Shown piece after piece: positions 15,608 to 35,884 of a DNA stretch of 64,000 nt (the first letter of the stretch is position 1; each line of letters starts with the position of its first letter). Below the pieces are notes generated by a model. The model was not told where the DNA came from, made no database searches, and was given only the letters and a program-made list of their open reading frames with translations. Made by a program: the position numbers and the translations under genes. Source of the DNA: a candidate division WOR-3 bacterium (GTDB lineage: Bacteria > Hydrothermota > Hydrothermia > JBDRYB01). The DNA lies in assembly GCA_039803205.1 (NCBI GenBank), contig JBDRYB010000001.1, positions 331,413-395,412 on the forward strand, given 5' to 3'.

Positions 15608-15707
15608 CCTGAAGATTATAATCCATGCATGCGTAGTTGAAACAACAAGCGTGGATGCTGGATAATATGAAACTGCTCCGCATTCGCGGAGAGTAGTGGA
15701 GGTTATT

Positions 15708-17113: not shown

Positions 17114-17164
17114 AAACCCCCGGCCAGACCGGGAGGTGCGAGGGTTTTATCCGGCCGGGTGGTT
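17114..17164 (-). terminator. Large-loop hairpin H1 (loop contains CACCTCCCG) downstream of propeller gene A
   Basis: Minus strand CCCGGCCGG-ataaaaccctcgCACCTCCCGgt-CTGGCCGGG followed by a T run. Confidence 0.75.
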
Positions 17165-17188
17165 ACTGGCACAATATGGTTCGCGTTT

Positions 17189-18763
17189 TTACTCAATCAC
17201 CTTGAGCACTTTTGTTCCTCCTTGATACTTCAGCACCGCAAAGCAAACGCCCTTGGTTAGCTCAAGGCCACCGCGCCCTGGGTTGAATGTGTGGGCCCCT
17301 TGGGTGAGAACGCCGTTATACAGGTTCTGGATGAGCCTGCCTGAGGCGTCGTATAGAGTGAGAGAGATATGGAAAGTTGCTGGCATGAAAAGATAGATGC
17401 CTTTGCCCCTCGGCTCTAGGAGAATCTTCTCCTTCATGATATCTTCTTCCTTTTCCCCTTCATATAAAGGGCTACAGCCTTGCGTATTATTAGGATCATC
17501 TATAGCGAAGATCCGGCTACTATCGGGCATCGCGTCCTGAAGACCAAAAACTATCTCAATGCATCCATCGAGATCTATATCAGCCGCAAAGGGCGAGTGG
17601 ACATCTGTCGAGAAGCCCCCCATGCTCCAGAGTATAGAACCATCCTCTCCGTTGACACATATGAGGGTATTTGTGGGTAGGTCGTCCTGCGAGAGCATGA
17701 TCTCCAATTTCCCGCCATCATTTCCGTCCACATCCACTATGGCTCCTTGGCAGTGTATCCCGGCGGGGAAACCTGTCTTGACCCATTTTTGGGTTCCATC
17801 TGTTCCTCTAAGGCAATAGAGACTCGGGGCCATGGTTCCTATTACCACCTCTATCTGGCCATCAGCGTCAAGGTCTGCTACCCCAGGGGAAGAGTATATT
17901 ATCGCGCCTCCTGTAGAAAAGCTCCACTTAGTTCCCCCATCCGTTCCCGCGAAACAATATATCACTCCGTTTGTGGAAGCCGCAATGACCTCAGCCTTTC
18001 CATCCTGGTCGCAATCATATATGACCGGATAATTCGGGAGATCCCCCATTAAGCTTCCTATTCTCCTAGCCCATTTACGAGTCCCGTTAGAGCCTTCCAG
18101 ACAATAGAGCGTGTCATTGGCGGCTATGACCACATCCAGGTCCAGGTCACCATCGCAATCAGCGACCGCGGGCCCTGCTCGACAATACATGATGGAGGAA
18201 TTGTTCCATATGGGGGTTCCGTTGAGTCCTGAGAGGCAATATACTCCGTTCATGTATGTGCCAAAGAAGACCTCAAGCACTCCGTCTCCATCCAGATCAG
18301 CGGCATTGGGTGAAGCCATTGTGCCTGGCGCAAAGGACCATTTCTCAGAGCCGTCAGAACCTCTGAGGCAATAGAGGTTTTCTCCATAGTCAGAAACGAT
18401 GATCTCAACAGCTCCATCATTATCCACATCAGCAACAACAGGAGTGGAACGCACACTTGAGATGAAGTCCCGTGTCCACTTGCGGGTGCCGTCCAGCCCG
18501 CTGAGACAATAGAGCTTCGCGCGACGGACGCTGGATCCATAGCTTCCCATGATAACCTCTGGATACGGATCCGCATCAACATTTGCGGAGCTTCCGTATT
18601 GCCACTCCACCATGCCCGCTGAGTCCGTTGGCGCACTCCACTGTATTACAGGGCTGGTAATGGCTCCTTTCATGAGCTGCTGCCCAGTATGAGCAGGATC
18701 GCCCGCCCACATGGTCCAGGTCTGATAGGCCTGGCCTACGAACATAGTAACTGCAATAAACAT
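17189..18763 (-). CDS. Secreted FG-GAP/PQQ-like beta-propeller protein A with T9SS-like C-terminal domain
   Basis: Repeats ADxDGDGxxEV...YCLxGxDGxxKW; C-terminal LYDASGRLIQNLY...GVCFAVL...KVIE; SD GGAGGTG. Confidence 0.85.
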   Translation of the reverse strand: MFIAVTMFVGQAYQTWTMWAGDPAHTGQQLMKGAITSPVIQWSAPTDSAGMVEWQYGSSANVDADPYPEVIMGSYGSSVRRAKLYCLSGLDGTRKWTRDFISSVRSTPVVADVDNDGAVEIIVSDYGENLYCLRGSDGSEKWSFAPGTMASPNAADLDGDGVLEVFFGTYMNGVYCLSGLNGTPIWNNSSIMYCRAGPAVADCDGDLDLDVVIAANDTLYCLEGSNGTRKWARRIGSLMGDLPNYPVIYDCDQDGKAEVIAASTNGVIYCFAGTDGGTKWSFSTGGAIIYSSPGVADLDADGQIEVVIGTMAPSLYCLRGTDGTQKWVKTGFPAGIHCQGAIVDVDGNDGGKLEIMLSQDDLPTNTLICVNGEDGSILWSMGGFSTDVHSPFAADIDLDGCIEIVFGLQDAMPDSSRIFAIDDPNNTQGCSPLYEGEKEEDIMKEKILLEPRGKGIYLFMPATFHISLTLYDASGRLIQNLYNGVLTQGAHTFNPGRGGLELTKGVCFAVLKYQGGTKVLKVIE

Positions 18764-18805
18764 CTCAACACCTCCAAGGTTATCTCGTTTCTGTTTCTGG
18801 CAGTA

Positions 18806-18839
18806 ATTATAACCGTGGATGTAATGCAGATGTAACGCA
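18806..18839 (-). promoter_or_regulatory. Promoter of propeller A: two 11-bp direct repeats, 6 bp, then TATAAT
   Basis: Minus strand TGCGTTACATC TGCATTACATC cacggt TATAAT. Confidence 0.7.
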
Positions 18840-18900
18840 AATTGCGTTGGTTCGTTGTCTTAACTTGATTTTGGCCATTTCTAACCCTTATAATTTTTCT

Positions 18901-20484
18901 ATGGGCGCAGACGAAATTGTAAGGGAAGCCATAATGAGGTTCCAGAAACTAGGTGCTTTGGAAAGATATATTGAGGAAATCAGGAAGGATAGTGGGATTC
19001 TTGCGGCACAAGTGGCTGAGGTTTATCTGGATACCGTAAGACATAGGCACGATATGGCTATTAGAAGAGGTAAAGCGCTCATTGCAAAGACCCATAATAG
19101 CCCGTGGGTGAGAGGGTATCTATTGATGCTACTAGGAGTGAACTACGGAAATATGGGAGAATTAGGCAAATCCGTCAATTGTTTTCAGCAGGCTCTGGGG
19201 ATCGCGGAATTCTTATTGGACCGCGATACCGCGCTCCAGGCCAAGGTTTATCTCGCGGCGAGCCATATTTTCAACTCCGAATACCGCGTTGCCTATAGGC
19301 TTCTTTCTTCTATCCTAAAGGATCTGCATAAGAGCTCCCCTCTATTTTACACTTGCTATTATTATTTTGGGATTTGTGCCCTAGCTACCGGAAACCTAGA
19401 AAAGGTAGCGAAGGCTTACGAGGTATATCTAGAAAGCCAAAAGGACAACATAAGAAGGGCTTACTTCCTGGAGATAATGGCTTTTGTTCTCAGAATAAGA
19501 GGGAAACTCGCTGAGGCCATGGAGACATTCGTTAATTCGGCAAAAGAGCATGTTGAACATGGTTCTGCCTACTCCGTGTATCCTATAGCCAAGGCCCTTG
19601 AGCTCTCCCGACTTGCTGGTTTTGAGCCTGTTCCCCGTGAGCTGTTAAAGAAGGCTCTAGATCTTGCCAGAAGGGGAGGTCTAGGCGAGCAGGCTGCGGC
19701 AGAGGAAATAGACGCGCTCCTCAAGGATGACGACTCCGAGGCCGCTGAGATGCTATACGATGCCGCGAATAACTATCTAAGAGCGCATCAGAACATAGAG
19801 GCCTTGTTTTCGGGCCTGACCGCGGCTTACCTGGCCTGGAAGACGGACAGCCCGGTATTCACTAAAGCCTTGAAGCTTATTGCCTCTCTCATTCCCCTGC
19901 ATCCGGGCTTAAGGAAAGACCCCCTCCTTGGGGATTTCATGTCCGAGGTGGAGCCATTTCTGAGAAAAGCCTTGAGACATGGCCAAGACAAAGATGGCAT
20001 AAAGGCGTATCTTATTGGCGAACTCAGGGTTATGGTAGATGGTAAAGAAGTAAATCTAAGGGGTTGGCGCAACAACAAGGCCATAAAGGGACTCATTTAT
20101 CTCCTCTTATCTTCAAAACACAGGATACCATCGGATCACCTTTTTTATCTGCTCTGGCCCAGGAGGGCATTAAACGAGAGGACGCGATATTACCTATATA
20201 ACGCAATAGCCGCCATAAGGAGAAACCTGGGCCGCCCCGAACTCCTCGTCAAAAAAAGAGACTTTTACCAGCTTGAAGGGGATGTCTGGACAGACTTGGG
20301 AGAACTGGAAAACCTCATAAGACTCGCTGACGCTACACGCGATCCTGCCGAGAGGGAGGAGTATCTCGCCAAAGCAAAAGAATTAGCAAGGGGCGATCTC
20401 CTTCCTGAATTCCCCTATGACAAACACATTGAGGAATACAGGTATTACTATGAGAGGATCAGGCAGAGGCTTGGCCTCCGATGA
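18901..20484 (+). CDS. TPR + SARP-family (wHTH, short BTAD) transcriptional regulator A
   Basis: Helical TPR-like N-terminus; IKAYLIGELRVMVDG...LFYLLWP...IRRNLG...VWTDLGELE...ARGDLLPE; TATAAT + 6 nt + ATG. Confidence 0.8.
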   Translation: MGADEIVREAIMRFQKLGALERYIEEIRKDSGILAAQVAEVYLDTVRHRHDMAIRRGKALIAKTHNSPWVRGYLLMLLGVNYGNMGELGKSVNCFQQALGIAEFLLDRDTALQAKVYLAASHIFNSEYRVAYRLLSSILKDLHKSSPLFYTCYYYFGICALATGNLEKVAKAYEVYLESQKDNIRRAYFLEIMAFVLRIRGKLAEAMETFVNSAKEHVEHGSAYSVYPIAKALELSRLAGFEPVPRELLKKALDLARRGGLGEQAAAEEIDALLKDDDSEAAEMLYDAANNYLRAHQNIEALFSGLTAAYLAWKTDSPVFTKALKLIASLIPLHPGLRKDPLLGDFMSEVEPFLRKALRHGQDKDGIKAYLIGELRVMVDGKEVNLRGWRNNKAIKGLIYLLLSSKHRIPSDHLFYLLWPRRALNERTRYYLYNAIAAIRRNLGRPELLVKKRDFYQLEGDVWTDLGELENLIRLADATRDPAEREEYLAKAKELARGDLLPEFPYDKHIEEYRYYYERIRQRLGLR

Positions 20485-20525
20485 TTTTGCCCCACCTTAA
20501 CGCGTAGCCTTAAAATTTTCAAACC

Positions 20526-21572
20526 TTGGGTATTCTCAGTCGGATTCGTTCCATTTTCAGGACGGAGGTCGCTCTGGATCTGGGGACAGCGCATACCCTC
20601 GTCTATGTAAAGGGGAAAGGCATAGTCATCCGGGAGCCATCGGTCGTCGCGGTTGACCTAACAACGGGAAAGCCAATAGCCATAGGCGCTGAGGCAAAAC
20701 TAATGCTCGGAAAGACCCACGAGACCATAATGGCGAAGCGGCCAATAAAGGATGGGGTCATAGAGAACCTCGATCTTGTGAACCTGATGATCTCCTCCCT
20801 CCTATCTAGAGTGATGAGGAACACGATCGCGAAACCCATACTCTATGTCGGGGTTCCCTCAGGCGCTAATGAGGTGGAGCTCAAGGCTGTCAGGGATGCT
20901 GGAGAGGCCGCTGGTGCGAGGGAGGTCTATCTGGTCGCTGAGCCGGTCGCGGCCGCTGTCGGAATGGACTTGCCGATCCACGACCCCACTGGGTACATGG
21001 TCGTTGATATTGGGGGAGGCACAACAGAAATAGCAGTTATATCCCTTGGTGGCATCGTAGCCCAGGCATCCATTCCCATAGCCGGGGACGAGATGGATCA
21101 GGCGATAATCAACTATATAAGGCGCAAATACACGATACTCATAGGCGAGCAGACAGCGGAGAAGATAAAGATAACCATAGGAAATGTTTATCCCACAGAG
21201 GAGGTGCTTGAGCCCATGGAGGTTCGGGGTCAGAGCCTCGTGAACAGCATGCCCCAGGTTGTTGAGATAACGCCCTCAGAGGTAAGAGAGGCCCTAAGGG
21301 AGCCGGTTTCCCAGATACTTGAGGCCATAAGAAGGGCATTTGAGGCCACGCCGCCGGATCTCATGGCGGACATAATAGAGCAAGGCATACACCTTACAGG
21401 CGGTGGCGCTCTCCTCAGGGGTATGGACCTCCTCATAAAAGAGGAGACCGGTCTTATGGTCAAGGTGGTCGAGAGGCCCCTTGAATGCGTGGCAATAGGG
21501 GTGGGAAAGATAATGGAGAATCCGAAAAAATACAGGAGCGTCATCCTCCCTTCCAGGAAACCAAGTAGATGA
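20526..21572 (+). CDS. mreB: Rod shape-determining protein MreB
   Basis: LDLGTA, VDIGGGTTE, LTGGGALL. Confidence 0.97.
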   Translation: MGILSRIRSIFRTEVALDLGTAHTLVYVKGKGIVIREPSVVAVDLTTGKPIAIGAEAKLMLGKTHETIMAKRPIKDGVIENLDLVNLMISSLLSRVMRNTIAKPILYVGVPSGANEVELKAVRDAGEAAGAREVYLVAEPVAAAVGMDLPIHDPTGYMVVDIGGGTTEIAVISLGGIVAQASIPIAGDEMDQAIINYIRRKYTILIGEQTAEKIKITIGNVYPTEEVLEPMEVRGQSLVNSMPQVVEITPSEVREALREPVSQILEAIRRAFEATPPDLMADIIEQGIHLTGGGALLRGMDLLIKEETGLMVKVVERPLECVAIGVGKIMENPKKYRSVILPSRKPSR

Positions 21573-21686
21573 AATGTTCCTACGATCTGCGAAGCACGGC
21601 TTTCGGTCTGAAGCCCGGAACCGGAGCGGTCCTTTGTTGTTGACCGCATCCATTCTGCCCCTTGAATTCACAACTGGCAAACGATC

Positions 21687-22385
21687 ATGAGGGACATTTA
21701 TCGCTTTCTCCTGGCCCTATTCGTGGCTGGGCTATTTCTGCTACCGTTTCCGCGCAAGCTAGTCCACAATACCTTGCTGGCAACGCTATATGTGCCTGTG
21801 CTACGGGCTGAGGCCTTTATATTGGACCTTTTTCACCTGAAGTCTGAGAGGGATTACCTTCTCGCCGAGAACGCTCGGCTTTCGGCAGAGCTGGGTAAGA
21901 GATACATTCTATCTGATGAAGGGGGCGATATAGCGAGGCCTCTTAGGTTTGATCCCCCTGACAATCCGGAGAGGATAATCGTGGATGCTGGAAGGAACAA
22001 GGGCCTAAAACCCGGGGATGTCCTAATGAGCGGTGGGGCTCTTGCTGGCAGGATCATCGCGGTTGAGGCCAACACATCCACACTCCTAACCCCGTTTTCT
22101 CCGGATTTTATGGCTGGCGTTCTGGACACCAGAACCATGATCCACGGTGTCCTCGTTGGGGGAACTAGCCCAAAGGTTGATTACATACCCAGCTGGGAGG
22201 ATGTGAAGGCTGGGGATACCCTCGTTACCTCTGGACTTGCTGGGTTTCTGCCCCCTGGCGTCTTGGTTGGGGTTGTTGAGAATGTCTACAGGACTGACAA
22301 ACCATTCCTTGAGGTCAGGGTAAAATTGTTTTATCAGCCGCAGAAGATCAGGGTCTTTACAATAGCCAGGGGAGGCTCGGGATGA
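21687..22385 (+). CDS. mreC: Rod shape-determining protein MreC
   Basis: AENARL coiled coil, GDTLVTSGL; synteny. Confidence 0.9.
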   Translation: MRDIYRFLLALFVAGLFLLPFPRKLVHNTLLATLYVPVLRAEAFILDLFHLKSERDYLLAENARLSAELGKRYILSDEGGDIARPLRFDPPDNPERIIVDAGRNKGLKPGDVLMSGGALAGRIIAVEANTSTLLTPFSPDFMAGVLDTRTMIHGVLVGGTSPKVDYIPSWEDVKAGDTLVTSGLAGFLPPGVLVGVVENVYRTDKPFLEVRVKLFYQPQKIRVFTIARGGSG

Positions 22386-22816
22386 GAGGGTGGCTCCTCT
22401 GGCTCTACGCGGGCCTTGCAGTCATGTTCGCTGTGATATTCACAAGGATAAGGTTTTCCGGTTTTCCGGAGGCCTCCGTGTCGCTTTTCGCGGCCGCATC
22501 AATGAGATCGCCCTACCCGTTTTCCCTGATCCTGGGCATCGTCCTTGGGCTCCTTACAGAGGGGCTTCATCCTTCGGAACCCTGGGTTACTCCCCTCCTT
22601 TACATCCTTCTTGCCAGCGCTAGCCGCTACGCGAGGGACCAGATGAACCTCCGGGGTTGGCTCCTCGGCCTCTATTTCCTTTTCTGGGGAATAGCCTTTA
22701 GGGTCCTCCCTCCCATTTTTCACGGACAGACAGCGGGCTTTCTTGATGCGGCAGTCGGTTCAGCTCTGACCGCTGTTCTCGCTTATCTCCTTTATCTGCC
22801 ATGGAAAGAAGAATGA
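22382..22816 (+). CDS. mreD: Probable MreD
   Basis: Hydrophobic 144-aa protein between mreC and mrdA. Confidence 0.7.
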   Translation: MRGWLLWLYAGLAVMFAVIFTRIRFSGFPEASVSLFAAASMRSPYPFSLILGIVLGLLTEGLHPSEPWVTPLLYILLASASRYARDQMNLRGWLLGLYFLFWGIAFRVLPPIFHGQTAGFLDAAVGSALTAVLAYLLYLPWKEE

Positions 22817-25670: not shown

Positions 25671-25741
25671 CGATCGCGGCGGTGAAAATGGGCGAATCGT
25701 TTTTGAAACCGGAGGACTTTGGCTCTTATAATATCCTTCTT

Positions 25742-25831
25742 GGAGAGGTGGCCGAGCGGTTGAAGGCGGCGGCTTGCTAAGCCGTTGTAGGGAGTATATC
25801 CCTACCGCGGGTTCGAATCCCGCCCTCTCCG
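25742..25831 (+). tRNA. tRNA-Ser(GCT)
   Basis: Cloverleaf with long variable arm; anticodon loop TTGCTAA; G discriminator; no CCA. Confidence 0.95.
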
Positions 25832-25866
25832 TTGAGAATCATCTACAGAATTACAAAAACACGAAA

Positions 25867-27432
25867 CTATTCTTTCCCGTAGATTTTCTTCTTCAGTCTT
25901 TCGTAATATTGCCTGTATTCGTCAATGTAGCGGTCGTAGGGGAATTCGGGAAGCAGATCGCCATTAGCGAGTTCCCGAGCCCTGGCAAGGTATTCCTCTT
26001 TTTCGGTAGGATCACGGGTAGCGTCAGCTAGCCTCAGAAGGTTCTCCAGTTCTCCAAGGTCTGTCCAGACATCCTCAAGCTGGTAGAAGTCCCGGTGTTT
26101 GACAAGGAGCTCACGCCTAATGAGATGGGTTCTTATCGTGTTTATGGCAGTATAAAGAAGGCACCTAGATTTTTGGGTATACTTGCGTCTTGGCCAAAGA
26201 AGATAGAAAAGGTGATCGTAGGGTATCCTATGCTTGGGCGAAAGAAGGAGATAGATCAATCCGAGTATAGCCTTGTTATTCCGCCAGGCCTTCAGTCTAA
26301 TATCTTTGTTGTCCACAGTTATCTTGGTTTCTCCTATGAGATACGCTTTTATCCCCGATTTTGGCTCTGTTTCCCTTTGGTTTACGAGGGGTTCTATTTG
26401 TATGAGAAAGTCTCGGAGGAAAGGGTCATGCTTGAGGCCTGGATGCAAGGAAGCCAAAGGGTTAAGAAATTTCAAGGCTTGAGGGAGGGTGGGGCCGTTT
26501 GATCGCCAGGCCAAAAAAGCTGAGGTCAATCCAGCCAAAAACGCCTCTAATGGCTGGTAAGCCCGATAATAGTTCTGAGCGGCCTCAAAGAGCATACAAG
26601 CTGTTTCATCTTCTTCCTGCAAAAGAAGGGCCTTTATTTCCTGGGCTGCGGCCTGCTCGCCCCAGCTTCCAGACCTTGCCAGAGATAGGCACTTCTTAAC
26701 AGTATCCTGAGGGGGTGCATCAAACCCGGATAACCTCGAAAGATTCATGGCCTTGGCACAAGGAAAGGCAGAGTAGGCTGATCCAAGATCCAAAAAGGCT
26801 TGGATTGAACCCAAATAGCTTTCCATTGATTCATCACATCTTCCCATCAACCTCAGGGCAAGACCTTTCATTTCCAACACGCCCGCCAGAAATAGAGGCC
26901 TCCTTCTTAACCTCAAAAGCGATTCCAGGATTTTATTGGCTTGTTCCGGCATTCCACGGATTATGTGTAGGACTGCGAACATGTACAAAGCATCAGGACG
27001 TTCCTCTTCTTTCAGAAATTTCTTTATATCACAGTAAAGCGTTTCGTATTCGGCCTTAAACAACCTGATGGATAGGAGGGACATTTTCGCACTGGTTGCG
27101 GCTTTCCTATGTCCCAAAAGTTCCGCGGCCTCAAGGAACTTGATGAAAAAGCTCTCTGCTCTGTCCATTTCTCCTAACATCCTGTAGGCCATCCCCATAT
27201 TGTCAAACAAATACAAGGCTATCTCGGGTTTATCCGAGACTTTCGCCAACAGCCTCTTTCCCTTTCTCACAACCTCCGCGGATTTAGCCCTGTAAAAAGC
27301 CACCGATACCTCCAGGATACCGGCGGCCAGGGGGTCCTGTGCTTTCAATGTCTCAATATACCTAGCGACCTCAGAAAGCCTACCCATCTTCAGTTTCTTT
27401 ATGCCTTCCTTTATCCTATCCGCGGTGTCCAT
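25867..27432 (-). CDS. TPR + SARP-family regulator B (paralog of A)
   Basis: C-terminal ~160 aa closely match regulator A; TAGACT + 6 nt + ATG. Confidence 0.8.
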   Translation of the reverse strand: MDTADRIKEGIKKLKMGRLSEVARYIETLKAQDPLAAGILEVSVAFYRAKSAEVVRKGKRLLAKVSDKPEIALYLFDNMGMAYRMLGEMDRAESFFIKFLEAAELLGHRKAATSAKMSLLSIRLFKAEYETLYCDIKKFLKEEERPDALYMFAVLHIIRGMPEQANKILESLLRLRRRPLFLAGVLEMKGLALRLMGRCDESMESYLGSIQAFLDLGSAYSAFPCAKAMNLSRLSGFDAPPQDTVKKCLSLARSGSWGEQAAAQEIKALLLQEEDETACMLFEAAQNYYRAYQPLEAFLAGLTSAFLAWRSNGPTLPQALKFLNPLASLHPGLKHDPFLRDFLIQIEPLVNQRETEPKSGIKAYLIGETKITVDNKDIRLKAWRNNKAILGLIYLLLSPKHRIPYDHLFYLLWPRRKYTQKSRCLLYTAINTIRTHLIRRELLVKHRDFYQLEDVWTDLGELENLLRLADATRDPTEKEEYLARARELANGDLLPEFPYDRYIDEYRQYYERLKKKIYGKE

Positions 27433-27481
27433 TCTGAAAGTCTAAAGATTTTAGCCGATCAAATTCAAGTCTTTCAAGCAC

Positions 27482-27526
27482 TTCCTCAGATATGCCTCAG
27501 ATATGTCTCAGATATGTTCTTAGACT
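27482..27526 (+). promoter_or_regulatory. Promoter of propeller B: three 11-bp direct repeats, 6 bp, then TAGACT
   Basis: TTCCTCAGATA TGCCTCAGATA TGTCTCAGATA tgttct TAGACT. Confidence 0.75.
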
Positions 27527-27564
27527 ATAGAGATGTTTATAAAGCCAGAAAGGAGTGTTTGGCC

Positions 27565-29091
27565 ATGTCTAGCTTGCTTATAGAAATCATGCTCGTAAGT
27601 CAGATCTATGGAAACTGGCCCATGTGGGGAGGCACGCCCACCCACGAATCCGTCCAGCTCATGAAAGGAGCCATAACAAGTCCTGTGATAAAGTGGAGGG
27701 TTGCAACTGAATACATGGTTGAATTGCAATTCTCAGCCATAGCTGATGTGGATGGCGATGGACATGTGGAGGTGGTGATAAGCTCTGGCGACGGGGCCTG
27801 TTGCCTCCGCGGCTCAGACGGAACCCAGAAGTGGGCTTTAACGATTGGTGGGTGGTCCTCTCCCGCGTTAGCTGATGTGGATGGCGATGGACAGATGGAG
27901 GTCGTGATAGGAAGTCTTGACAACAAGGTCTATTGCCTCCGCGGCTCAAACGGGACCCAAAAGTGGGCCTTCACGACGGGATACTCTGTGATTTCCTCCC
28001 CCGCAATAGCTGATTGCGATGGCGACGGCCAGATGGAGGTCGTGATAGGAAGTCTTGACAACAAGGTCTATTGCCTCCGGGGCTCAGACGGGACCCAGAA
28101 GTGGGCCTTCACGACGGGAGACTTAGTGTGGTCCTCCCCAGCCATAGCTGATGTGGATGGCGATGGACAGATGGAGGTCGTGATAGGAAGTCTTGACAAC
28201 AAGGTCTATTGCCTCCGGGGCTCAGACGGGACCCAGAAGTGGGCGTTCACGACATGGGACGATGTGCTGTCCTCTCCAGCCATAGCTGATGTGGATGGCG
28301 ATGGACAGATGGAGGTGGTTATAGGCTCATATGACCACAATGTCTATTGCCTCCGGGGCTCAGACGGGACCCAGAAGTGGGCCTTCACGACGGGAGACTT
28401 AGTGTGGTCCTCCCCAGCCATAGCTGATGTGGATGGCGATGGACAGATGGAGGTGGTTATAGGCTCAGATGATAAGAAGGTCTATTGCCTCCGTGGCTCA
28501 AACGGAACCCAGAAGTGGGCCGCGTCCTTCCCTTCTTCTGTTCACCTTCCCGGAGCGCTAGCGGATGTTGATGGTGATGGTAAGTTTGAGTTCCTGGTTT
28601 CGCAGCTGGGAGTTAAACCTAACATTGACAACCTCTATTGCCTGAACGCTGAGGATGGCTCTGTGGCCTGGAATATACCCCTGGCCTTTGATGTCCACTC
28701 TCCGTTTGCTGGGGACATAGACAGAGACGGGTGCATAGAGATAATCACGGGTACAAATGAGGCTGATGCCTCGGGTTACCGGATCTTCGCCTTAGATGAC
28801 CCTGCCAACGCTACGGGCTGTGGCCCTGTATATGAGGACATAGAGGAGGATCACGGCTCTGGTCCCATTGATTTCAGATCCATTGATCAGGGCCTTTACC
28901 TTTTCATGCCCTGTGAGGCCCAGGTTTCCCTCTCCCTCTACGACGCTCAGGGCAGGCTCGTTCAGAACCTTTATGAAGGCCTCCTGAGCCCCGGCGGCCA
29001 CACCTTCATCCCAAAAACAGAAACAAAGGGCGTTTATCTCGCGGTTCTAAGGTATCAGGGAGGAATCCAGACTGTAAAGCTCATAAGATAA
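27565..29091 (+). CDS. Secreted FG-GAP/PQQ-like beta-propeller protein B with T9SS-like C-terminal domain
   Basis: Near-identical 46-aa repeats; SD AAGGAG before ATG 27565. Confidence 0.85.
   Translation: MSSLLIEIMLVSQIYGNWPMWGGTPTHESVQLMKGAITSPVIKWRVATEYMVELQFSAIADVDGDGHVEVVISSGDGACCLRGSDGTQKWALTIGGWSSPALADVDGDGQMEVVIGSLDNKVYCLRGSNGTQKWAFTTGYSVISSPAIADCDGDGQMEVVIGSLDNKVYCLRGSDGTQKWAFTTGDLVWSSPAIADVDGDGQMEVVIGSLDNKVYCLRGSDGTQKWAFTTWDDVLSSPAIADVDGDGQMEVVIGSYDHNVYCLRGSDGTQKWAFTTGDLVWSSPAIADVDGDGQMEVVIGSDDKKVYCLRGSNGTQKWAASFPSSVHLPGALADVDGDGKFEFLVSQLGVKPNIDNLYCLNAEDGSVAWNIPLAFDVHSPFAGDIDRDGCIEIITGTNEADASGYRIFALDDPANATGCGPVYEDIEEDHGSGPIDFRSIDQGLYLFMPCEAQVSLSLYDAQGRLVQNLYEGLLSPGGHTFIPKTETKGVYLAVLRYQGGIQTVKLIR
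27741..28560 (+). repeat. Intragenic tandem repeat, about 6 units, 138-bp period
   Basis: agctgat...gatgg anchor at 27741, 27870, 28008, 28146, 28284, 28422. Confidence 0.9.
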
Positions 29092-29095
29092 TCCT

Positions 29096-29145
29096 AAAAG
29101 CCCCGGCTTACATTCTGCACCTCCCGTTCCTGGCCGGGGCTTTTT
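29096..29145 (+). terminator. Large-loop hairpin H2 (CACCTCCCG loop), likely bidirectional terminator
   Basis: AAAAGCCCCGGCT-tacattctgCACCTCCCGttcct-GGCCGGGGCTTTTT. Confidence 0.8.
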
Positions 29146-29157
29146 ATATGCCCTTCT

Positions 29158-31011
29158 TTATTTGCCCTGGAATCGCGGCGGCCACCCCAATCTTGATTCC
29201 ATCTTCAGCTCATTCTTGAACTGCTCCGTAAAATCTTCGTAAAGCTTCTTGGCCCTTTCTGGCATTTTAAGCCGAATTAGGGCTTTCATGGCCATCTCGC
29301 AAGCATCCTCAGAAAAAGGCCTGATAGAAAGCGCTCTTTCGGCAAACCTCAGAGCCTGCTCTGGTTCCTCATCAAGCGAGTATTCGGCCATTCTGGTATA
29401 AACGAGACTGGTAAGTTCCCTCACCTCATCCCTAATATCCTCCAGGAAACCCGGCCTCCAACCCTCCAAAAAATCTCCCCTTATCAGGCTAAGGGCTTTC
29501 TCGTAAATAGGCCTTGCCTCGCTGGTAGGGGCCGAAGCCTCTACTGCCTTGGCCGTGTTCACGAGGTTTCTGAGTTCATCAAGGTCTGTCCGTATTTCAC
29601 AGCCTATCCACGCGCTGGTATGGGATTTATGAGGCTTTATAGCTACGCCCTGGTTCCTGAGGATGGCCCTGGCAAGAGCCGTGAACTTGTAGTAGTTCCT
29701 TCTCGCCCTTTCCAAAGGAAGGCGTGGCCAGAACTCCTGTATGATCCTCTCCCTTGTCAACTCGCCTTTGGCATGAAGGGCAAAGAAAACGAGAACCTCG
29801 CCTGGTCTCCCCTTCTCAAGATGAAAGCGTCCGCGAGGGGTCTCAATCGCGGGTTGTCCCATAACCAAAAGCTTCATCCTGGCCTGTTTGGAACGAGGGC
29901 TCAGCTTCTCAGCTATTTCTCTCAATTCCATTTTATCCGGGAAAACCGAAAGAGCTAGCATGAAGGGTGTAGGCACGGCGTGGGCTATGTAGGAGATGTA
30001 ACCCCAAAGTTCGTGTTCTTTTGTTAGGTTCATCAATGTTTTAATATCCTCCAGGGAATCGCTTTCCAGACCTAATTTGTTCTTGACCGCTATCTTTGCC
30101 CATTTGGCCCAAAGCATGGCCACCCCAAAACCACGGGTCCTCGCCTCAGCTTCTATCTCTTCTATCCTCATCAACGAATCGCCGTTTTGAGGCAAAACAG
30201 ACTCTTTTATAGCCTTTATCTCAAGCGTTGTTTTTAGTCTTCCTACCCTCGCGGCCGAGTTCTCCCCGAGCTCCAGATATAGATTTGCTCTATCAATGTC
30301 CCCCTCAGTTGCGAAGACGATCCCGAGGGACGCAAGGCAGGTAGAAAGCTCCATGGCGGCACCGTGGGCCTTCCTAACCTCCTCTAATGCTTGATTGATG
30401 TGTCGCTTAGCCCTTTCGTATTCGCCCATGCAGATATAACAGAATCCGAGGATATCGTTTTTCACGGCCTCAATCGGAGGAGTATCCTTGGGGCTGTTCG
30501 TGATGAGCTCCACGGTTTCGCGAAAACGCCCTGTCCCGGCCAGCGCCTCTGCCTTCAAGAGCATAGCTGTGGGATCCGTCAGCTTTAGCCCCTCAAGCAG
30601 TTCCAGGGAGTACTCCGGCTCCCCGCGGACCAGGGCCAAGCGCGCCTTGCTCACAAGAGCCACATCTCTCCACTCCATATCCTCAATCTCTTTCACTAAT
30701 CTGGACGCCTCTTTCAGCCTCCCTTGTTCAAGGAGTATCTCTATGTAACCCCGAAGGAACCAAACATATGGCGTTATATCCCCCTTCTTTATGGAAGCAC
30801 TCTTGAGCTTCTGGATGCCCCTCTTGAGAACCTCGGATTCTCCTATTGGGGCGAAGATGTGGGACATGAATATTAAGGCCTGAGCCGCTCCACGCGGGTC
30901 ATCTTCCCCCAGGCAATCGTTAAAGAGGCTTGCGGCAAAGGAGAGAGCTTCATCCGTTTCGCCCCCTTTCCAGAGGAGCCTAAACTTCTGGGCTTTTTGT
31001 CTGTCTAACAT
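29158..31011 (-). CDS. TPR + SARP-family regulator C with full BTAD
   Basis: LLVMGQPAI...TRERIIQEFWP...TDLDEL...ALSLIRGDFLEG...ALSIRPFSEDACEMAMKA; start reassigned to ATG 31011 (TATAAT + 6 nt). Confidence 0.8.
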   Translation of the reverse strand: MLDRQKAQKFRLLWKGGETDEALSFAASLFNDCLGEDDPRGAAQALIFMSHIFAPIGESEVLKRGIQKLKSASIKKGDITPYVWFLRGYIEILLEQGRLKEASRLVKEIEDMEWRDVALVSKARLALVRGEPEYSLELLEGLKLTDPTAMLLKAEALAGTGRFRETVELITNSPKDTPPIEAVKNDILGFCYICMGEYERAKRHINQALEEVRKAHGAAMELSTCLASLGIVFATEGDIDRANLYLELGENSAARVGRLKTTLEIKAIKESVLPQNGDSLMRIEEIEAEARTRGFGVAMLWAKWAKIAVKNKLGLESDSLEDIKTLMNLTKEHELWGYISYIAHAVPTPFMLALSVFPDKMELREIAEKLSPRSKQARMKLLVMGQPAIETPRGRFHLEKGRPGEVLVFFALHAKGELTRERIIQEFWPRLPLERARRNYYKFTALARAILRNQGVAIKPHKSHTSAWIGCEIRTDLDELRNLVNTAKAVEASAPTSEARPIYEKALSLIRGDFLEGWRPGFLEDIRDEVRELTSLVYTRMAEYSLDEEPEQALRFAERALSIRPFSEDACEMAMKALIRLKMPERAKKLYEDFTEQFKNELKMESRLGWPPRFQGK

Positions 31012-31039
31012 GCTTAAATTATAGAGCTCCCGGGTTTCG

Positions 31040-31080
31040 GGAAACATTTCTGGAAAGCTTCCATTACAAAATTTAGACCT
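31040..31080 (+). promoter_or_regulatory. Promoter of propeller C (motif shared with 34263-34304)
   Basis: GGAAACATTTctGGAAAGCTTCCATTaCAAAATTTA. Confidence 0.65.
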
Positions 31081-31100
31081 TGCTCATGTGAGGTGATAAC

Positions 31101-32645
31101 ATGATAAACGCACATATAATCGTAACGGCCTTGATGGGCCAGGTCCTTGGAATCTGGCCCATGTGGGGCGGAGAACCTACCCATAGGTCCGTCCAGCTCA
31201 TGAGGGGAGCCATAACAACCCCCGTGATAAAGTGGGGATTCGGCGCATCCAGCTATGTTGAACGCCAGTTTGCCGCTGTGGCCGATGCAGACGGTGATGG
31301 GCATGCTGATGTTGTTTTTGGTTCAAGGGACGGTAAGGTCTACTGTCTCAGAGGCACTAACGGAACAAAGATATGGGACTTCCAAACCGGAAATCAGATT
31401 GTAGGGGTCGTCGCTTCACCAACAGTAGCTGATGTAGATGGAGATGGTGCTAAAGAGGTTGTCGTTGGCTCTGCGGATAGCTATTTCTACTGCATTAGAG
31501 GAAGTGATGGCGTAACAAAATGGATGTTTCAGGTAACCCCGAATAACTATGTTCTGAGCTCGGCGGCTGTGGTTGACCTCGATAGCGATGGGCATATGGA
31601 GGTTATTTTCGGAAGCAACGACACGAGGGTTTACTGTCTGAACGGCACTGATGGCACCATCAAGTGGACATTTACCACTGGAAATTGGGTCCAGTCCTGT
31701 CCTGCCGTGGCCGACTGCGATGGGGATGGTTCCCTAGAGGTGGTCATAGGCTCCTATGACCACAAGGTCTATTGCCTTGCTGGCTCAGACGGAACCCAGA
31801 AGTGGGCATTTACAACAGGAGGCACAGTGTTCTCATCTCCAGCAATAGCTGATGTTGATGGCGATGGGGCTCTTGAGGTCGTGATAGGTAGTTGGGATCA
31901 AAAAATCTACTGCCTGCGCGGATCAGACGGCACCCAAAAATGGGCCTATACAACCCTGGCTTCAGTGAGCGCCTCCCCTTCCCTGGGAGATGTTGATGCT
32001 GATGGGAAATTAGAGGTATTGATAGGTTCAGAGGACCTCAGGGTCTACTGCCTCAGGGGAAGCGATGGCTCTGCGAAATGGATACGCACCATGCCGGGCA
32101 GAGTTTTACATCCAGGCGCTCTGGTTGATCTTGATGGGGACAACAAGCTTGAATACCTCGTATCCCAGCGGTATCAACATCCTGATACCCTCTTTTGTCT
32201 TAACGCTGAGGATGGCTCGATGGTTTGGAAGATAGCCTTAGCTTATTGGATCAACGGGCCTTTTGCCGCTGATGTTGATGATGATAGCTGCATTGAGTTA
32301 GTTGTGGGAACCTACTATTCAACGAATCTGCCTTCTGAGTTGACCGTGATAGATGATCCCTATGACAGCACGAACTGTGGACAGGTTACTGGCCTTGATG
32401 AGAGCGGTTTTGACAAGGGTTTTGAATTCAGGCCGATCGGCAAAAGCCTGTATCTCTTCAACTCATCCCCAATCCAGGTTCAGTTGGAGATATACGATCC
32501 CTCAGGCAGGCTCGTCCAAGGGCTTTACAACGGGCTCCTCCTACCAGGCGCCCACACCTTTTCCCCAATCCTAAGGACAGGTGGTATTTATCTGGCCGTG
32601 CTCAGGCACACCGGGGGCACGAAAACCATTAAGGTGGTAAGATGA
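31101..32645 (+). CDS. Secreted FG-GAP/PQQ-like beta-propeller protein C with T9SS-like C-terminal domain
   Basis: Same repeats and C-terminal domain as A and B; SD GAGGTG. Confidence 0.85.
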   Translation: MINAHIIVTALMGQVLGIWPMWGGEPTHRSVQLMRGAITTPVIKWGFGASSYVERQFAAVADADGDGHADVVFGSRDGKVYCLRGTNGTKIWDFQTGNQIVGVVASPTVADVDGDGAKEVVVGSADSYFYCIRGSDGVTKWMFQVTPNNYVLSSAAVVDLDSDGHMEVIFGSNDTRVYCLNGTDGTIKWTFTTGNWVQSCPAVADCDGDGSLEVVIGSYDHKVYCLAGSDGTQKWAFTTGGTVFSSPAIADVDGDGALEVVIGSWDQKIYCLRGSDGTQKWAYTTLASVSASPSLGDVDADGKLEVLIGSEDLRVYCLRGSDGSAKWIRTMPGRVLHPGALVDLDGDNKLEYLVSQRYQHPDTLFCLNAEDGSMVWKIALAYWINGPFAADVDDDSCIELVVGTYYSTNLPSELTVIDDPYDSTNCGQVTGLDESGFDKGFEFRPIGKSLYLFNSSPIQVQLEIYDPSGRLVQGLYNGLLLPGAHTFSPILRTGGIYLAVLRHTGGTKTIKVVR

Positions 32646-32653
32646 AGGAACCG

Positions 32654-32700
32654 GGCCGGCCGTGGAAACCTTGCACCTCCCGTATAAGCCGCGGCCGGCC
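32654..32700 (+). ncRNA. Large-loop hairpin H3 (CACCTCCCG loop), no adjacent U-tract
   Basis: GGCCGGCCGTGG-aaaccttgCACCTCCCGtataag-CCGCGGCCGGCC. Confidence 0.65.
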
Positions 32701-32727
32701 ACGCTTTCCTTTCAGAAGGCCTTTCCC

Positions 32728-34263
32728 ATGACTTGCCTACCCGGACCTGTTTTTCTTTTAAATATGGTTCTGTGGGCCAAGGCCTTCGGCGGTTCCGGAG
32801 GAGAAAGTGCCTTCTCGTCGGCCCTAATCTCAAACGGGAAAATCCTCATCGCCGGATCAACCACCAGCTTTGGGCTCAACTACCCTGATTTTCTCTTAAT
32901 CATGCTTCAGCCTGATGGCTCTGTTTCCTGGGCAAAGACCTACGCGGGGAGCATGTATGATTACCCATATTCCGTGATCCCAAACCCATACTCCGGTGGT
33001 TTCACTATAGCGGGCTGTATGAATTTCCGAGGGAGGGGATATGACGACATTTGCGTTATGGATCTCTTACCTGATGGATCTGTCAATTGGGAAAGGGTAT
33101 TCTGGGGCTCAGATCACGATGTGGCTCGTGCCGTGGTTCGGTCCGCTGATGGAGGGTTCCTGATCGGCGGAATGACCAGAAATTTCCTCGCGAGGAGCTA
33201 TGACCTGGTTATATTGAAACTCTCATCTGATGCCCAACTCCTATGGAGCAGAATACTCCGCGGGATTGGGTTTAGCGATGACCGCATATATTCCCTCATT
33301 CCAACATCTGACAGTGGGGTCATTGCAGTGGGGTGGGGTTCCAACGGTGCGGTCGGCGGATATGACATTATCGTATTGAAGATCGCGCAGAATGGCTCCA
33401 TGGTGTGGGGAAAGTATATAGGAACCCCTGGGTTTGACTACGGGTGGTCTGGCGTAAAAACCGACGATGGTGGCTTGATGCTCCTTGCTTCAACCGACGG
33501 TTCCGGGGCTGGGGGCACGGATATCTTGATCCTGAAGCTCTCCCCTGATGGTTCTCCTGAATGGGCCAAGACAATTGGGGGTCCAGCAAACGATTACGGT
33601 TGGAGTATGATCCGGACCAACGACAGCGGATACGCCATTATTGGCCAGACCGAGAGTTTTGGGGCCGGAGGCGCTGATCTTTTTCTGCTTAAGCTGGGGC
33701 CGGATCTTTCTTTGGCTTGGGCCAGCACCTACGGCACTTCAAGGAGAGATGTTGGGAGCTCTCTTGTCCAGCTTCCTGACGAGAGCCTAGTGCTTTTCGC
33801 TACTACAGACATAGGAAACTACAACCATGATTATCTGGTAATGAGGGTTGAGCCGTCAGGAGGCTATCCAGGGTGTCTAAGCCCCTGCACTCCTACCACA
33901 TCTTATGCGAGCCTGGGCGTGTCGCCAATTTCGCCAGATAGCCTTCAGAGCTTCACCCCCAATGTCCTGGATACTCTGCCAGCAGTAACAGATCAAAACC
34001 CCTCGGTTACCAATGTCTGCGAGCCAGTTTATGAGGAAATCAATGAGACTCAAAGTGATCCGGGAATCCCAATGGTGTGCCTTTCGTTGTCAGGAGGGAT
34101 CCTCATAAGATCATACCTTGAGACTGATATAAGTATTTATTCCTCTGATGGCAGACTGAGCTACTCAGGGAACCTCAAAAAAGGCGAAAGCCGAATCTCG
34201 CTCGGAAAAGGCGTTTATTTCTGGAGAGCAGGGGTTTACAGGGGTAAGGCTGTTGTATGGTAG
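32728..34263 (+). CDS. Secreted beta-propeller repeat protein (WxKTYGG...DGG...G.T.SFGAG type) with T9SS-like C-terminal domain
   Basis: Repeats such as WAKTIGGPANDYGWSMIRTNDSGYAIIGQTESFGAG; C-terminal IYSSDGRL...GVYFW...KAVVW; start uncertain. Confidence 0.75.
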   Translation: MTCLPGPVFLLNMVLWAKAFGGSGGESAFSSALISNGKILIAGSTTSFGLNYPDFLLIMLQPDGSVSWAKTYAGSMYDYPYSVIPNPYSGGFTIAGCMNFRGRGYDDICVMDLLPDGSVNWERVFWGSDHDVARAVVRSADGGFLIGGMTRNFLARSYDLVILKLSSDAQLLWSRILRGIGFSDDRIYSLIPTSDSGVIAVGWGSNGAVGGYDIIVLKIAQNGSMVWGKYIGTPGFDYGWSGVKTDDGGLMLLASTDGSGAGGTDILILKLSPDGSPEWAKTIGGPANDYGWSMIRTNDSGYAIIGQTESFGAGGADLFLLKLGPDLSLAWASTYGTSRRDVGSSLVQLPDESLVLFATTDIGNYNHDYLVMRVEPSGGYPGCLSPCTPTTSYASLGVSPISPDSLQSFTPNVLDTLPAVTDQNPSVTNVCEPVYEEINETQSDPGIPMVCLSLSGGILIRSYLETDISIYSSDGRLSYSGNLKKGESRISLGKGVYFWRAGVYRGKAVVW

Positions 34264-34304
34264 GAAACATTTTGGGGAACATTCCATTTTAAAATTTAAA
34301 ACCT
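34263..34304 (+). promoter_or_regulatory. Promoter of propeller D (copy of the C promoter motif)
   Basis: GGAAACATTTtgGGGAACATTCCATTtTAAAATTTA. Confidence 0.65.
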
Positions 34305-34322
34305 AAGACTGGAGGCATTGAC

Positions 34323-35828
34323 ATGATGAATATACATCTCATAACTAATCTGTTGGTCTGCCAGGCCCCTGGGACATGGCCCATGTGGGGTTACAACCCA
34401 GCGCACTGGGCAGTTCAACCGGTGCCCGGCGCGCACGCAACAGCTCCTGTTGTTAAGTGGATTATCTCAGTAGGGAATCAGATTCAGTGGCTTTTTTCTG
34501 CTACCAGTGATGTTGACCAGGACGGCCTGAATGAGGTTCTGGCTGGTTCTTTTTCCGGAAATTTTTACTGCCTGAACGGAACGACCGGAGCACAGAAATG
34601 GATCTTCAACGCTGGATCTGTTGTAGAATCGTGTCCCGCTGTCGCGGACATGGCCGGAGATGGTTCAGTGGAGGTAGTCTTCGGCACTTGGGGCGGAAAA
34701 GTCTATTGCCTCAGGGGCACGGATGGCACCAAGAAATGGGAATACACCACCTCTTATCAGTTCCACCACGGCCCAGTTGTGGTTGATTGCGACGGGGATG
34801 GCGATCTAGATGTGGTAATAGGGAATACGGTGGGAAGTGTATATTGCTTTGATGGTGAAACAGGTGGGCTTATATGGAATACTTTCCTCCTCTACAACAG
34901 CTATCTAGAGAACTCTTCACCCGCGGCCGGGGACATAGATGGGGACGGCCAGATAGAGGTAGTAATAGGTACCGCCCAGGGCATCTATTCCCTGAATGCC
35001 TCAACCGGAGCCGTAGAGTGGTTATCATCCAAAGGCGATTGCGGCAACTCTTCCCCTGGATTAGCTGACTGCGATGGGGATGGCGCTATTGAGGTGGTGA
35101 TAGGTTCTGCGGACTACAATATCTACTGCCTTAATGGTCAAACCGGAGCCGAGGAGTGGAGGTATACTACCGGAGGAATTGTTTGGTCTTCTCCGGTAAT
35201 TCTTGATGCTGACGGAGATGGGCTTCTTGAGATAATAATAGGGAGCTTTGACGGCTACGCTTACTGTCTGAGCGGGGAATCCGGAACCCTCCAGTGGAGA
35301 ACGCAGGTCGGTGAAATCCGCGTGGGCATCCCTGCTGGGGATGTGGACGGCGACAACAAATACGAGGTAATTATAGGAAATAACAGCGGATACACATGTC
35401 TCAACGCTGAGAACGGTTCTGTTCTCTGGACATCAGCACCATCTAGTGGGGGAAGGAGTATCTATCTCGCTGATGCGGATATGGACGGCTGTGTTGAGAT
35501 CGTAGGCGGGTCAACGGGCTACAACATATATGTGCTCGATGATCCCGGAAACTCATCAGGCTGCATGAGCGTGGGAGAACATGAAGGGCCTGGAGGGTAT
35601 TCCCTTGAGTTCAGGCCATTGTCTTGTGGCCTTTACCTTTTCCTGCCGAGCCATGTGCAGGTTTCCCTCTCCCTCTACGACGCTCAGGGCAGGCTCGTTC
35701 AGAACCTTTATGAAGGCCTCCTGAGCCCCGGCGGCCACACCTTCATCCCGAAAGCAGAGGGGAAGAGCGTTTATTTAGCGGTTCTAAGGTATCCCGGAGG
35801 GATAAAAACCGCCAAAATGATCAGATAA
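34323..35828 (+). CDS. Secreted FG-GAP/PQQ-like beta-propeller protein D with T9SS-like C-terminal domain
   Basis: Same architecture as A-C; SD GGAGG. Confidence 0.85.
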   Translation: MMNIHLITNLLVCQAPGTWPMWGYNPAHWAVQPVPGAHATAPVVKWIISVGNQIQWLFSATSDVDQDGLNEVLAGSFSGNFYCLNGTTGAQKWIFNAGSVVESCPAVADMAGDGSVEVVFGTWGGKVYCLRGTDGTKKWEYTTSYQFHHGPVVVDCDGDGDLDVVIGNTVGSVYCFDGETGGLIWNTFLLYNSYLENSSPAAGDIDGDGQIEVVIGTAQGIYSLNASTGAVEWLSSKGDCGNSSPGLADCDGDGAIEVVIGSADYNIYCLNGQTGAEEWRYTTGGIVWSSPVILDADGDGLLEIIIGSFDGYAYCLSGESGTLQWRTQVGEIRVGIPAGDVDGDNKYEVIIGNNSGYTCLNAENGSVLWTSAPSSGGRSIYLADADMDGCVEIVGGSTGYNIYVLDDPGNSSGCMSVGEHEGPGGYSLEFRPLSCGLYLFLPSHVQVSLSLYDAQGRLVQNLYEGLLSPGGHTFIPKAEGKSVYLAVLRYPGGIKTAKMIR

Positions 35829-35835
35829 TCTTCCT

Positions 35836-35884
35836 AACCCCGGCCGGCGAAAACCCTACACCTCCCGAGCTGGCCGGGGTTTTT
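35836..35884 (+). terminator. Large-loop hairpin H4 (CACCTCCCG loop)
   Basis: AACCCCGGCCGGC-gaaaacccta CACCTCCCG a-GCTGGCCGGGGTTTT. Confidence 0.8.

Follow-up and report, generated by a model that had tools for sequence, protein, structure and literature searches.

This work concerns an RNA hairpin that recurs downstream of beta-propeller genes in a 64-kb stretch of DNA (64,000 nt, here called the window) from the genome of a candidate division WOR-3 bacterium of the phylum Hydrothermota. As far as can be judged from sequence, the hairpin, together with a mini open reading frame (ORF) that traverses part of its copies and is referred to here as the relay ORF, is a covarying RNA family without an Rfam match, a real family and a new variant of known parts. 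The hairpins, arranged as terminators or as relays, would display in their loop a pairing site common to all of them and complementary to a single transcript, the key RNA; we give this complete model an even chance of being right. The sequences suggest, in particular, that one RNA may control by base pairing the whole family of genes that carry the hairpin. Coordinates are those of the whole 64-kb window unless a genome and contig are named; the source genome is designated G000, and G001 and G002 are the other two genomes of the genus.

The hairpin and its conserved loop

A preliminary description of the window had reported four hairpins (H1 to H4) on the mRNA strand of propeller genes, and all four are located where it placed them, with GC stems that begin 29, 4, 8 and 7 nt past the stop codon, respectively. 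Their folding z-scores range from -2.5 to -4.5, and Rfam gives no match at any of them (E<=5). From their sequences H1, H2 and H4 look like intrinsic terminators: H1 is common to its propeller gene and a convergent aminotransferase gene (15696-17111), H2 is likely a bidirectional terminator shared with a convergent regulator gene (29158..31047), and H4 faces convergent rpiB. H3, as had been described, lacks an adjacent U-tract (only 3 of the 8 nt past the stem are U) and yet keeps the loop.

The exact 9-mer CACCTCCCG had been said to be common to the four loops, and it is present in each (17130-38 in H1, 29118-26 in H2, 32674-82 in H3 and 35859-67 in H4). The conserved word is nevertheless longer than that description had it, comprising 10 nt (GCACCTCCCG), from which H4 departs by an A in place of the first G. 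The AAACC reported from three of the loops does occur in H1, H3 and H4 and not in H2, but it shows no conservation across the family. Within the window CACCTCCCG has five matches against 0.74 expected, a number reached in 1 of 100 shuffles; the fifth match (12403) is the Shine-Dalgarno (SD) site of a minus-strand gene. The likeness of CACCUCC to the anti-SD holds for the 16S tail of the source genome itself (GGAUCACCUCCUUUU), with which the loop shares seven bases while both flanks differ. As a separate observation, the H2 loop (29109-29131) is exactly complementary, over 14 nt, to the stretch from SD to AUG in another FG-GAP cargo gene (G000:C3:69943-69956); on the minus strand the loop reads as SD-ATG-TAA, and such a fit is not general among the loops.

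When 61 matches are aligned, 96% of the stem cells are paired and 9 of 11 pairs have changed on both sides, with a covariation score of 0.449 against 0.159 for shuffled and at most 0.191 for slid alignments, figures that lean favourable, given that related copies were aligned and that the structure guided the fit. Four antisense rows were kept in this calculation and dropped before the motif counts, and a coding-region match on contig C17 was dropped as well. Among 56 distinct sense copies, each position of the core CACCUCC (positions 2-8) is kept in 54-55, at 1.8-1.9 bits, and loop positions outside the motif carry 0.1-0.6 bits. The outer positions are intermediate, G1, C9 and G10 being kept in 43, 46 and 45 copies, and U11 and U12 in 42 and 37. 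Ten of the 11 core changes still pair by G-U, none is a transversion, and loop length ranges across copies from 17 to 32 nt. The possibility that the loop is no more conserved than its flanks, raised at the outset, is thus at variance with the contrast in bits. The initial view that the element is more than a plain terminator agrees both with the conservation of the loop core and with the covariation of the stem, and no explanation was found in Rfam, in integrons or in repetitive extragenic palindromic (REP) elements.

Distribution of the family

The source genome spans 2.3 Mb and is 96% complete. Genes encoding a C-terminal domain (CTD) resembling that of type IX secretion system (T9SS) substrates were collected with a hidden Markov model iterated from the tails of the window proteins, which yielded 239 CTD genes among about 2100 long ORFs. 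SprA is present in the genome (SprA_N above cut-off), and two of the five window propellers match the T9SS type A sorting domain TIGR04183, at 22.5 bits (27565..29091) and 20.1 bits against a cut-off of 23; the owners of the hairpin, with their T9SS-like tails, are putative T9SS cargo.

The covariance model that had been proposed was built and scanned against the genome, giving about 35 sense copies. Genome-wide, CACCTCCCG has 38 matches, 21 of them inside such hairpins, and in a scan that used structure only, GCACCTCCCG was found within two mismatches in 25 of 28 long-loop hairpins after CTD genes versus 0 of 9 after other ORFs. The hairpin follows 16 of 51 genes in one propeller family and 10 of 27 in another, unrelated one, as well as members of several other families. 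Copies concentrate in arrays headed by one of 21 SARP-like regulators: 20 of the 43 CTD genes in regulator-headed arrays have the hairpin, versus 12 of the 196 other CTD genes, and plain short-loop terminators follow other CTD genes. A single-clade origin was also considered, and the tree of the CTDs, from 78 columns, has little resolution (26 changes versus 30.4 shuffled); body families were therefore used to describe the diversity of the owners.

Outside the source genome, the other two genomes of the genus have 20 and 11 model matches, antisense duplicates included. Among 38 other genomes of the class, weak matches occur in five (best 8.6e-7), with no motif hairpin at them after filtering, and a 121-genome sample of the phylum gave two matches, both to ordinary hairpins without the motif. 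A pattern scan of metagenomes (at least 120 stretches) left two weakly scoring loci among 80 examined, neither of them convincing, and viral contigs gave 0 hairpin matches. A search of named genomes with the propeller protein returned nothing but distant proteins from other phyla. Nothing on this motif or organism was found in open-access texts, supplements aside.

On contigs C202, C380, C77 and C340 of G001 there are tandem hairpins with no intervening gene, an internal type followed by a terminal type, and a CTD-only fragment between two hairpins; these arrangements suggest that the arrays often undergo deletion or recombination. One could therefore regard the element as a plain terminator that was co-duplicated or recombined together with CTD modules, the identity of the loop reflecting descent and gene conversion. 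Such a history would fit this recombination, the near-identical linkers within arrays (the trios on C3, C38 and C1) and the restriction of the family to one genus among the genomes searched. It is very unlikely, all the same: the core stands at 1.8-1.9 bits beside neighbours in the same loops at 0.1-0.6, loop length and stems vary, other CTD genes end in ordinary terminators with short loops, and a conserved complement of the loop elsewhere in the genome (see below) would be left unexplained.

Terminator and relay arrangements

The copies were binned by script as terminal, promoter-followed or internal, and the raw counts are given here although about 4 of the 26 internal copies seem to belong in another bin (they have their own promoter, or the next gene is not a CTD gene). 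A U-tract (at least 5 U in 8 nt, a number that H3 does not reach) follows 20 of 22 terminal, 9 of 9 promoter-followed and 12 of 26 internal copies. The stem starts 5-11 nt past the stop in 44 of the 50 copies with an identified stop, and the stop itself differs between the classes: NTGA is used in 21 of 24 internal copies, in 0 of 9 promoter-followed and in 3 of 17 terminal ones (3 of 26 non-internal). In internal copies the NTGA stop creates an overlapping start from which a relay ORF of about 30 codons runs, and in 15 copies this ORF ends within -3 to +4 of the next start, 12 times as an exact ATGA double overlap. H3 represents a clean case, its relay beginning at ATG 32642 and ending, after 29 codons, in a TGA that overlaps ATG 32728. 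In G000, ATGA ends 13 of 20 hairpin genes that are followed by a CTD gene; among terminal hairpin genes it does so in 1 of 12, and among internal genes that lack the hairpin in 7 of 38. A conserved relay peptide was ruled out, as the motif lies in all three reading frames of the relay ORFs (10/7/3), and it is therefore the RNA, not the peptide, that is conserved. At G000:C16:39250-40896 the relay ORF and the following gene share a reading frame, and overlap start, hairpin and gene form a single open frame.

This anatomy lends itself to a two-state model. At a transcript end, behind a TAA stop and before a U-tract, the GC stem would serve as an intrinsic terminator and 3' protector. Between co-transcribed cargo genes, a ribosome terminating at the NTGA stop could re-initiate on the mini-ORF and travel through the hairpin, and the second overlap would deliver this relay ribosome to the next start, by analogy with known termination-reinitiation. 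An internal hairpin would thus hand expression onward only while the upstream gene is being translated. If this is so, a single stop-codon change (TAA or TGA) would decide between a terminator and a translation-gated pass, a compact design.

A different way to account for hairpins between cassettes is to regard the element as an attC-like or REP-like site at which DNA recombines and cargo cassettes are moved; the relay ORF would then be an attC-style fix. The cassette content does vary between species at syntenic sites. In the window a block of regulator-propeller cassettes (25741-35890) sits between tRNA-Ser(GCT) and rpiB; in G001 (C276) the tRNA adjoins rpiB with no cassettes between them, and in G002 (C11) a decayed half-hairpin with mutated motif, 3' arm and U-tract is the sole remnant beside rpiB. 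Half-elements broken near the motif (G002:C11 and G001:C349) and the short ORFs through attC hairpins described in PMC8876359 also speak for such a site. We nonetheless consider it the least probable of the readings discussed here. The best integron integrase match (TIGR02249) in the 96% complete genome reaches 68.7 bits against a cut-off of 265, and the GTTRRRY/RYYYAAC boxes, as given in PMC8876359, are absent from a 33-copy consensus. The sole Y1 transposase is flanked by its own, different repeats; no hairpin-model match lies on its contig (C13) and the copies are confined to CTD cassettes, unlike REP elements or bacterial interspersed mosaic elements. Furthermore, stems that differ in sequence remain complementary in 96% of cells, which would not be expected if crossovers in the loop were frequent, and the division of copies into U-tract and relay types involves RNA-level features. 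The Y1 (HUH) transposase-like gene in question (G000:C13:5080-6100) has tandem palindromic repeats of about 60 bp on both sides, a REPtron-like arrangement unrelated to the hairpin.

A candidate partner RNA

The open loop offers a shared 10-nt pairing site, GCACCUCCCG, and its likeliest partner would be the exact complement CGGGAGGUGC, which is contained in a sequence referred to here as the key (CGGGAGGTGC; G000:C1:419695-419710, minus strand). The key was found by listing the non-hairpin complements of the motif. It lies about 24 kb past the end of the window, immediately flanked by the stop codon and the intrinsic terminator of an unlinked cargo gene, a single-copy BNR-repeat CTD gene (G000:C1:419711-421456, minus strand). 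In G000 and G002 the promoter of this gene is close to consensus; no regulator is adjacent to the gene, and its clear orthologues are confined to the three hairpin-bearing genomes.

At the key, 23 nt are invariant in 3 of 3 species; the orthologues of the gene are only 63.5% identical, agreement at third codon positions is 46 of 100, and the stem and loop of the terminator change. Among 225 usable G000-G002 orthologue pairs (774 kb of G002) the key is the only 16/16 post-stop match, and it is likewise the only match in a set of 258 non-coding blocks with perfect conservation (0.006 expected). The exact key 15-mer is found in 3 of 41 genomes, which are those that have the hairpins. Predicted loop-key duplexes come to between -20 and -23 kcal/mol at 37 C and between -11 and -13 at 70 C, compared with -17 and -7 kcal/mol for the 16S tail, and opening the loop is predicted to cost 0-2.5 kcal/mol. 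Rfam matches at the key appear only at E 2.7-3. One RNA run gave only fragments of tRNA and mrdA-like sequence, and no weight was placed on it in either direction. Neither Hfq nor CsrA was found in the 96% complete genome, which has a single NusG.

It can be envisaged that the key RNA, either as an mRNA tail or as a processed fragment, pairs with all loops without a chaperone; both the pairing and its direction are predictions. A constitutive key RNA might set a threshold on leaky mRNAs from inducible cassettes, silence them or destabilise them; conversely, the key mRNA might be tuned down once the cassettes are induced; or the key could act as a decoy that titrates the anti-SD-like loops and keeps ribosome sites unblocked. 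The broader picture of many locks and one key, in which about 35 loops on surface-protein mRNAs with separate activation are read by the 3' untranslated region (UTR) of one constitutive surface-protein mRNA without Hfq, falls somewhat short of an even chance in our estimation, and the same reserve applies to its component whereby relay mini-ORFs make the internal copies conditional on translation. Base-pairing regulation in bacteria normally involves one small RNA (sRNA) acting on 5' ends, and the closest logical parallel to such a network is found in microRNA seed sites. If it exists, it would amount to regulon-wide 3'-to-3' control of a secreted-protein family and would allow post-transcriptional coordination or mutual exclusion within a large T9SS cargo repertoire. 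Should the key prove mistaken, there would still be an RNA family absent from Rfam, made up of the covarying hairpin and its relay ORF.

Several points weigh against the pairing model. The key was discovered by a search for the complement of the motif, and its contig was added to the control set deliberately; its rank there was blind, its presence was not. Neither the key nor the loop consensus differs between the three genomes, which belong to one genus, and therefore no loop-key covariation is visible. The best-conserved positions, 2-8, are exactly the 16S anti-SD heptamer, and the key-specific ones are weaker (G1 43, C9 46 and G10 45 of 56): all changes at positions 1 and 10 break the loop-key pair, U11 (42 of 56) is unpaired with the key, and no more than 29 of 57 copies keep the full 10 nt. 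If an SD-like core is taken as the starting point, the three matches beyond it would arise by chance in about 2 of 64 cases. The key seed is partly self-paired, its opening costing 4.5-6.8 kcal/mol at 37 C and 2.0-3.6 at 65 C. Synonymous sites upstream of the key are not significantly more conserved (13/21 vs 122/294, p=0.11), and an internal promoter for a separate sRNA is not evident by eye. As for the relay, six internal NTGA copies have no relay end within -3 to +4 of the next start, and ATGA also ends some internal genes that lack the hairpin (7 of 38).

The reader of the loop could also be a protein. A factor binding the 10-mer, either on the RNA loop or on the DNA or non-template strand during elongation, might control termination, processing or localisation of the cargo mRNAs. 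A fixed single-stranded word set in a large loop whose length varies is a typical form of protein site, and the loops here (17-32 nt) correspond to it. Reading at the DNA level could in addition account for a word conserved in both orientations, given that the plus strand of the key locus is the motif itself, located just past a hairpin on the read-through of the convergent gene. This explanation appears improbable: no CsrA, no Hfq and a single NusG were detected in the 96% complete genome, and the core changes are all G-U-compatible bar one. Besides, the conserved key stretch stays at a fixed distance from the stop of the CTD gene, whereas the stop of the convergent gene shifts by about 0, 30 and 85 nt.

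Pairing with Shine-Dalgarno sites

The loop might, alternatively, act as a generic anti-SD brake that pairs with the SD sites of cargo genes, the key being a decoy or by-product. Three routes are conceivable: in cis on the next SD, with the relay ribosome opening a pseudoknot; on the 5' end of the same mRNA, in an icaR-like manner; or in trans, from stable 3' fragments. The invariant core is indeed the 16S anti-SD heptamer, and an SD lies about 25-45 nt past the stem in most internal copies. CTD genes also have strong SDs (GGAGG in 134/237 versus 498/1859), and after GGAGGTG they show C or T in 33 cases and a purine in 13, versus 8 and 34 in other genes (Fisher 7e-7), a C or T being able to pair with the G of the loop. 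The 14-nt complementarity of the H2 loop to one cargo gene completes the evidence on this side.

Other results count against such a brake, and we rate it as unlikely but not negligible. Starts were picked by script for the pairing comparisons. The pairing between the two ends of one mRNA that had been suggested earlier did not emerge, since loops fit their own SD no better than permuted loops do (permutation p=0.12, n=32), and the start region of the next gene gave the same outcome with shuffled loops (p=0.42, n=22). For only 5 of 35 loops is the best genome-wide partner a CTD gene, against a baseline of 11%. H3 has the exact motif and yet no SD downstream, and the core is kept in 20 of 22 terminal versus 20 of 26 internal copies. 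The ratio of GGAGGTGC to GGAGGTGA spans 0.37-0.83 within the genus, compared with 0.10-1.0 across 18 element-free genomes; a genus-specific SD bias was looked for and not seen, as the element-free genomes cover the same range. A general anti-SD sRNA role, likewise proposed at the outset, finds weak support in the SD bias of CTD genes, but this bias is confounded by upstream TGA stops, which make up 7 of the 28 A cases in non-CTD genes, and by paralogy, the paralogues not being independent.

Two further features of SD sites were recorded. GGAGGT is present at 78% of the GGAGG sites of CTD genes versus 33% in other genes. In all three species, the 5' UTR of a TonB-dependent receptor gene (G000:C7:18187-18212) contains GGAGGTGC as an additional, SD-like site ahead of the real SD; as a loop target it was retained as a minor candidate, with an 11-nt fit in G000 and only 8-9 nt in the other two species.

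Relation to known systems

Intrinsic (Rho-independent) terminators, as defined in PMC7821165, are resembled by the hairpin in several respects, bidirectional ones included: the GC stem stands a few nt past the stop, often between convergent genes, and a U-tract is present in 29 of 31 terminal or promoter-followed copies. Unlike them, it has a loop of 17-32 nt with a near-invariant core and is multicopy and tied to one gene class, and about half of the copies combine weak U-tracts with a relay ORF.

RNAIII and RsaE are base-pairing RNAs with C-rich loops. To the same kind belongs the 6C RNA of mycobacteria, the C-rich loop of which is described as pairing independently of a chaperone (PMC6486639), and the LhrC RNAs of Listeria are multicopy siblings that repress surface proteins at the ribosome binding site, called the largest sibling set, with seven members, in the account of PMC8079631. 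The hairpin shares with 6C, LhrC and RsaE a C-rich, conserved and exposed loop. It differs from LhrC and 6C in that the loops sit, by position, in mRNA 3' ends and number about 35 against the seven of LhrC, and in that many loops would address one linear partner rather than one sRNA addressing many SD sites.

Among 3' UTRs, PMC7821165 presents the 5'-3' UTR pairing of icaR in Staphylococcus aureus and the mRNA-mRNA pairing of the hly 3' UTR with the prsA2 5' UTR in Listeria. Here too a 3' UTR motif is anti-SD-like or predicted to pair with another mRNA. However, there is no loop-specific fit to the gene's own SD as in icaR, the motif is inside the terminator loop itself, and the candidate partner is another 3' UTR and not a 5' UTR.

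The relay ORF has its counterpart in integron attC sites, where a short ORF carries ribosomes through the intergenic hairpin to the next gene according to PMC8876359, and -4 overlaps are treated in PMC10666635 as the standard coupling geometry for termination-reinitiation. As in those cases the mini-ORF spans the hairpin with start and stop overlaps, from which coupling may be expected; unlike attC, the present arrays lack an integron integrase and attC boxes, contain a terminator-like hairpin and possess regulators of their own.

Genes and features of the window

The preliminary description counted four propeller genes, a number that has to be raised to five: the additional one belongs to the DUF5122/delta-60 type and has no hairpin after it. 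That description had neither the relay mini-ORF nor the conserved complementary RNA. The features are listed in Table 1.

Table 1. Hairpins, cassette genes and associated features in the window.
Feature	Position	Strand	Details
H1, terminal-type hairpin	17119..17159	-	stem 17159-17149/17129-17119, 11 bp; loop 19 nt; GCACCTCCCG at 17130-17139; U-rich tail
FG-GAP/PQQ-like beta-propeller gene, owner of H1	17189..18763	-	T9SS-like C-terminal tail; TAA stop
SARP-like (TPR/BTAD-type) regulator, divergent, head of H1 cassette	18847..20484	+	one of 21 paralogues; BTAD match in a paralogue
tRNA-Ser(GCT)	25741..25832	+	left edge of cassette block 25867-35890
Divergent regulator, head of H2 cassette	25867..27432	-	TPR repeats
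FG-GAP propeller gene, owner of H2	27565..29091	+	start inferred from SD site (open frame from 27514); TAA stop
H2, terminal-type hairpin	29096..29144	+	stem 29096-29108/29132-29144, 13 bp including A/U ends; loop 23 nt; GCACCTCCCG at 29117-29126
Regulator, head of H3/H4 array	29158..31047	-	TPR and BTAD
FG-GAP propeller gene, owner of H3	31101..32645	+	T9SS-like tail; end AGA-TGA, giving ATGA overlap
Relay mini-ORF through H3	32642..32731	+	29 codons; ATG overlaps upstream TGA, own TGA overlaps next ATG
H3, internal-type hairpin	32654..32700	+	stem 32654-32665/32689-32700, 12 bp; loop 23 nt; GCACCTCCCG at 32673-32682; without U-tract
Fifth propeller gene (DUF5122/delta-60)	32728..34263	+	T9SS-like tail; probable start 32728 without good SD site
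FG-GAP propeller gene, owner of H4	34323..35828	+	T9SS-like tail; TAA stop
H4, terminal-type hairpin	35836..35881	+	stem 35836-35848/35869-35881, 13 bp; loop 20 nt; ACACCTCCCG at 35858-35867; U-tract

Two repeats deserve mention in their own right. On contig C10 of the source genome (L001:1200-1400), a direct repeat of about 95 bp follows a sequence resembling a tRNA, close downstream of the 16S gene. In the window, the promoter region between the divergent regulator at 25867-27432 and the H2 gene contains, at 27460-27520, a four-fold repeat of an 11-bp unit with TCAGATATG, and these units are possible activator boxes.

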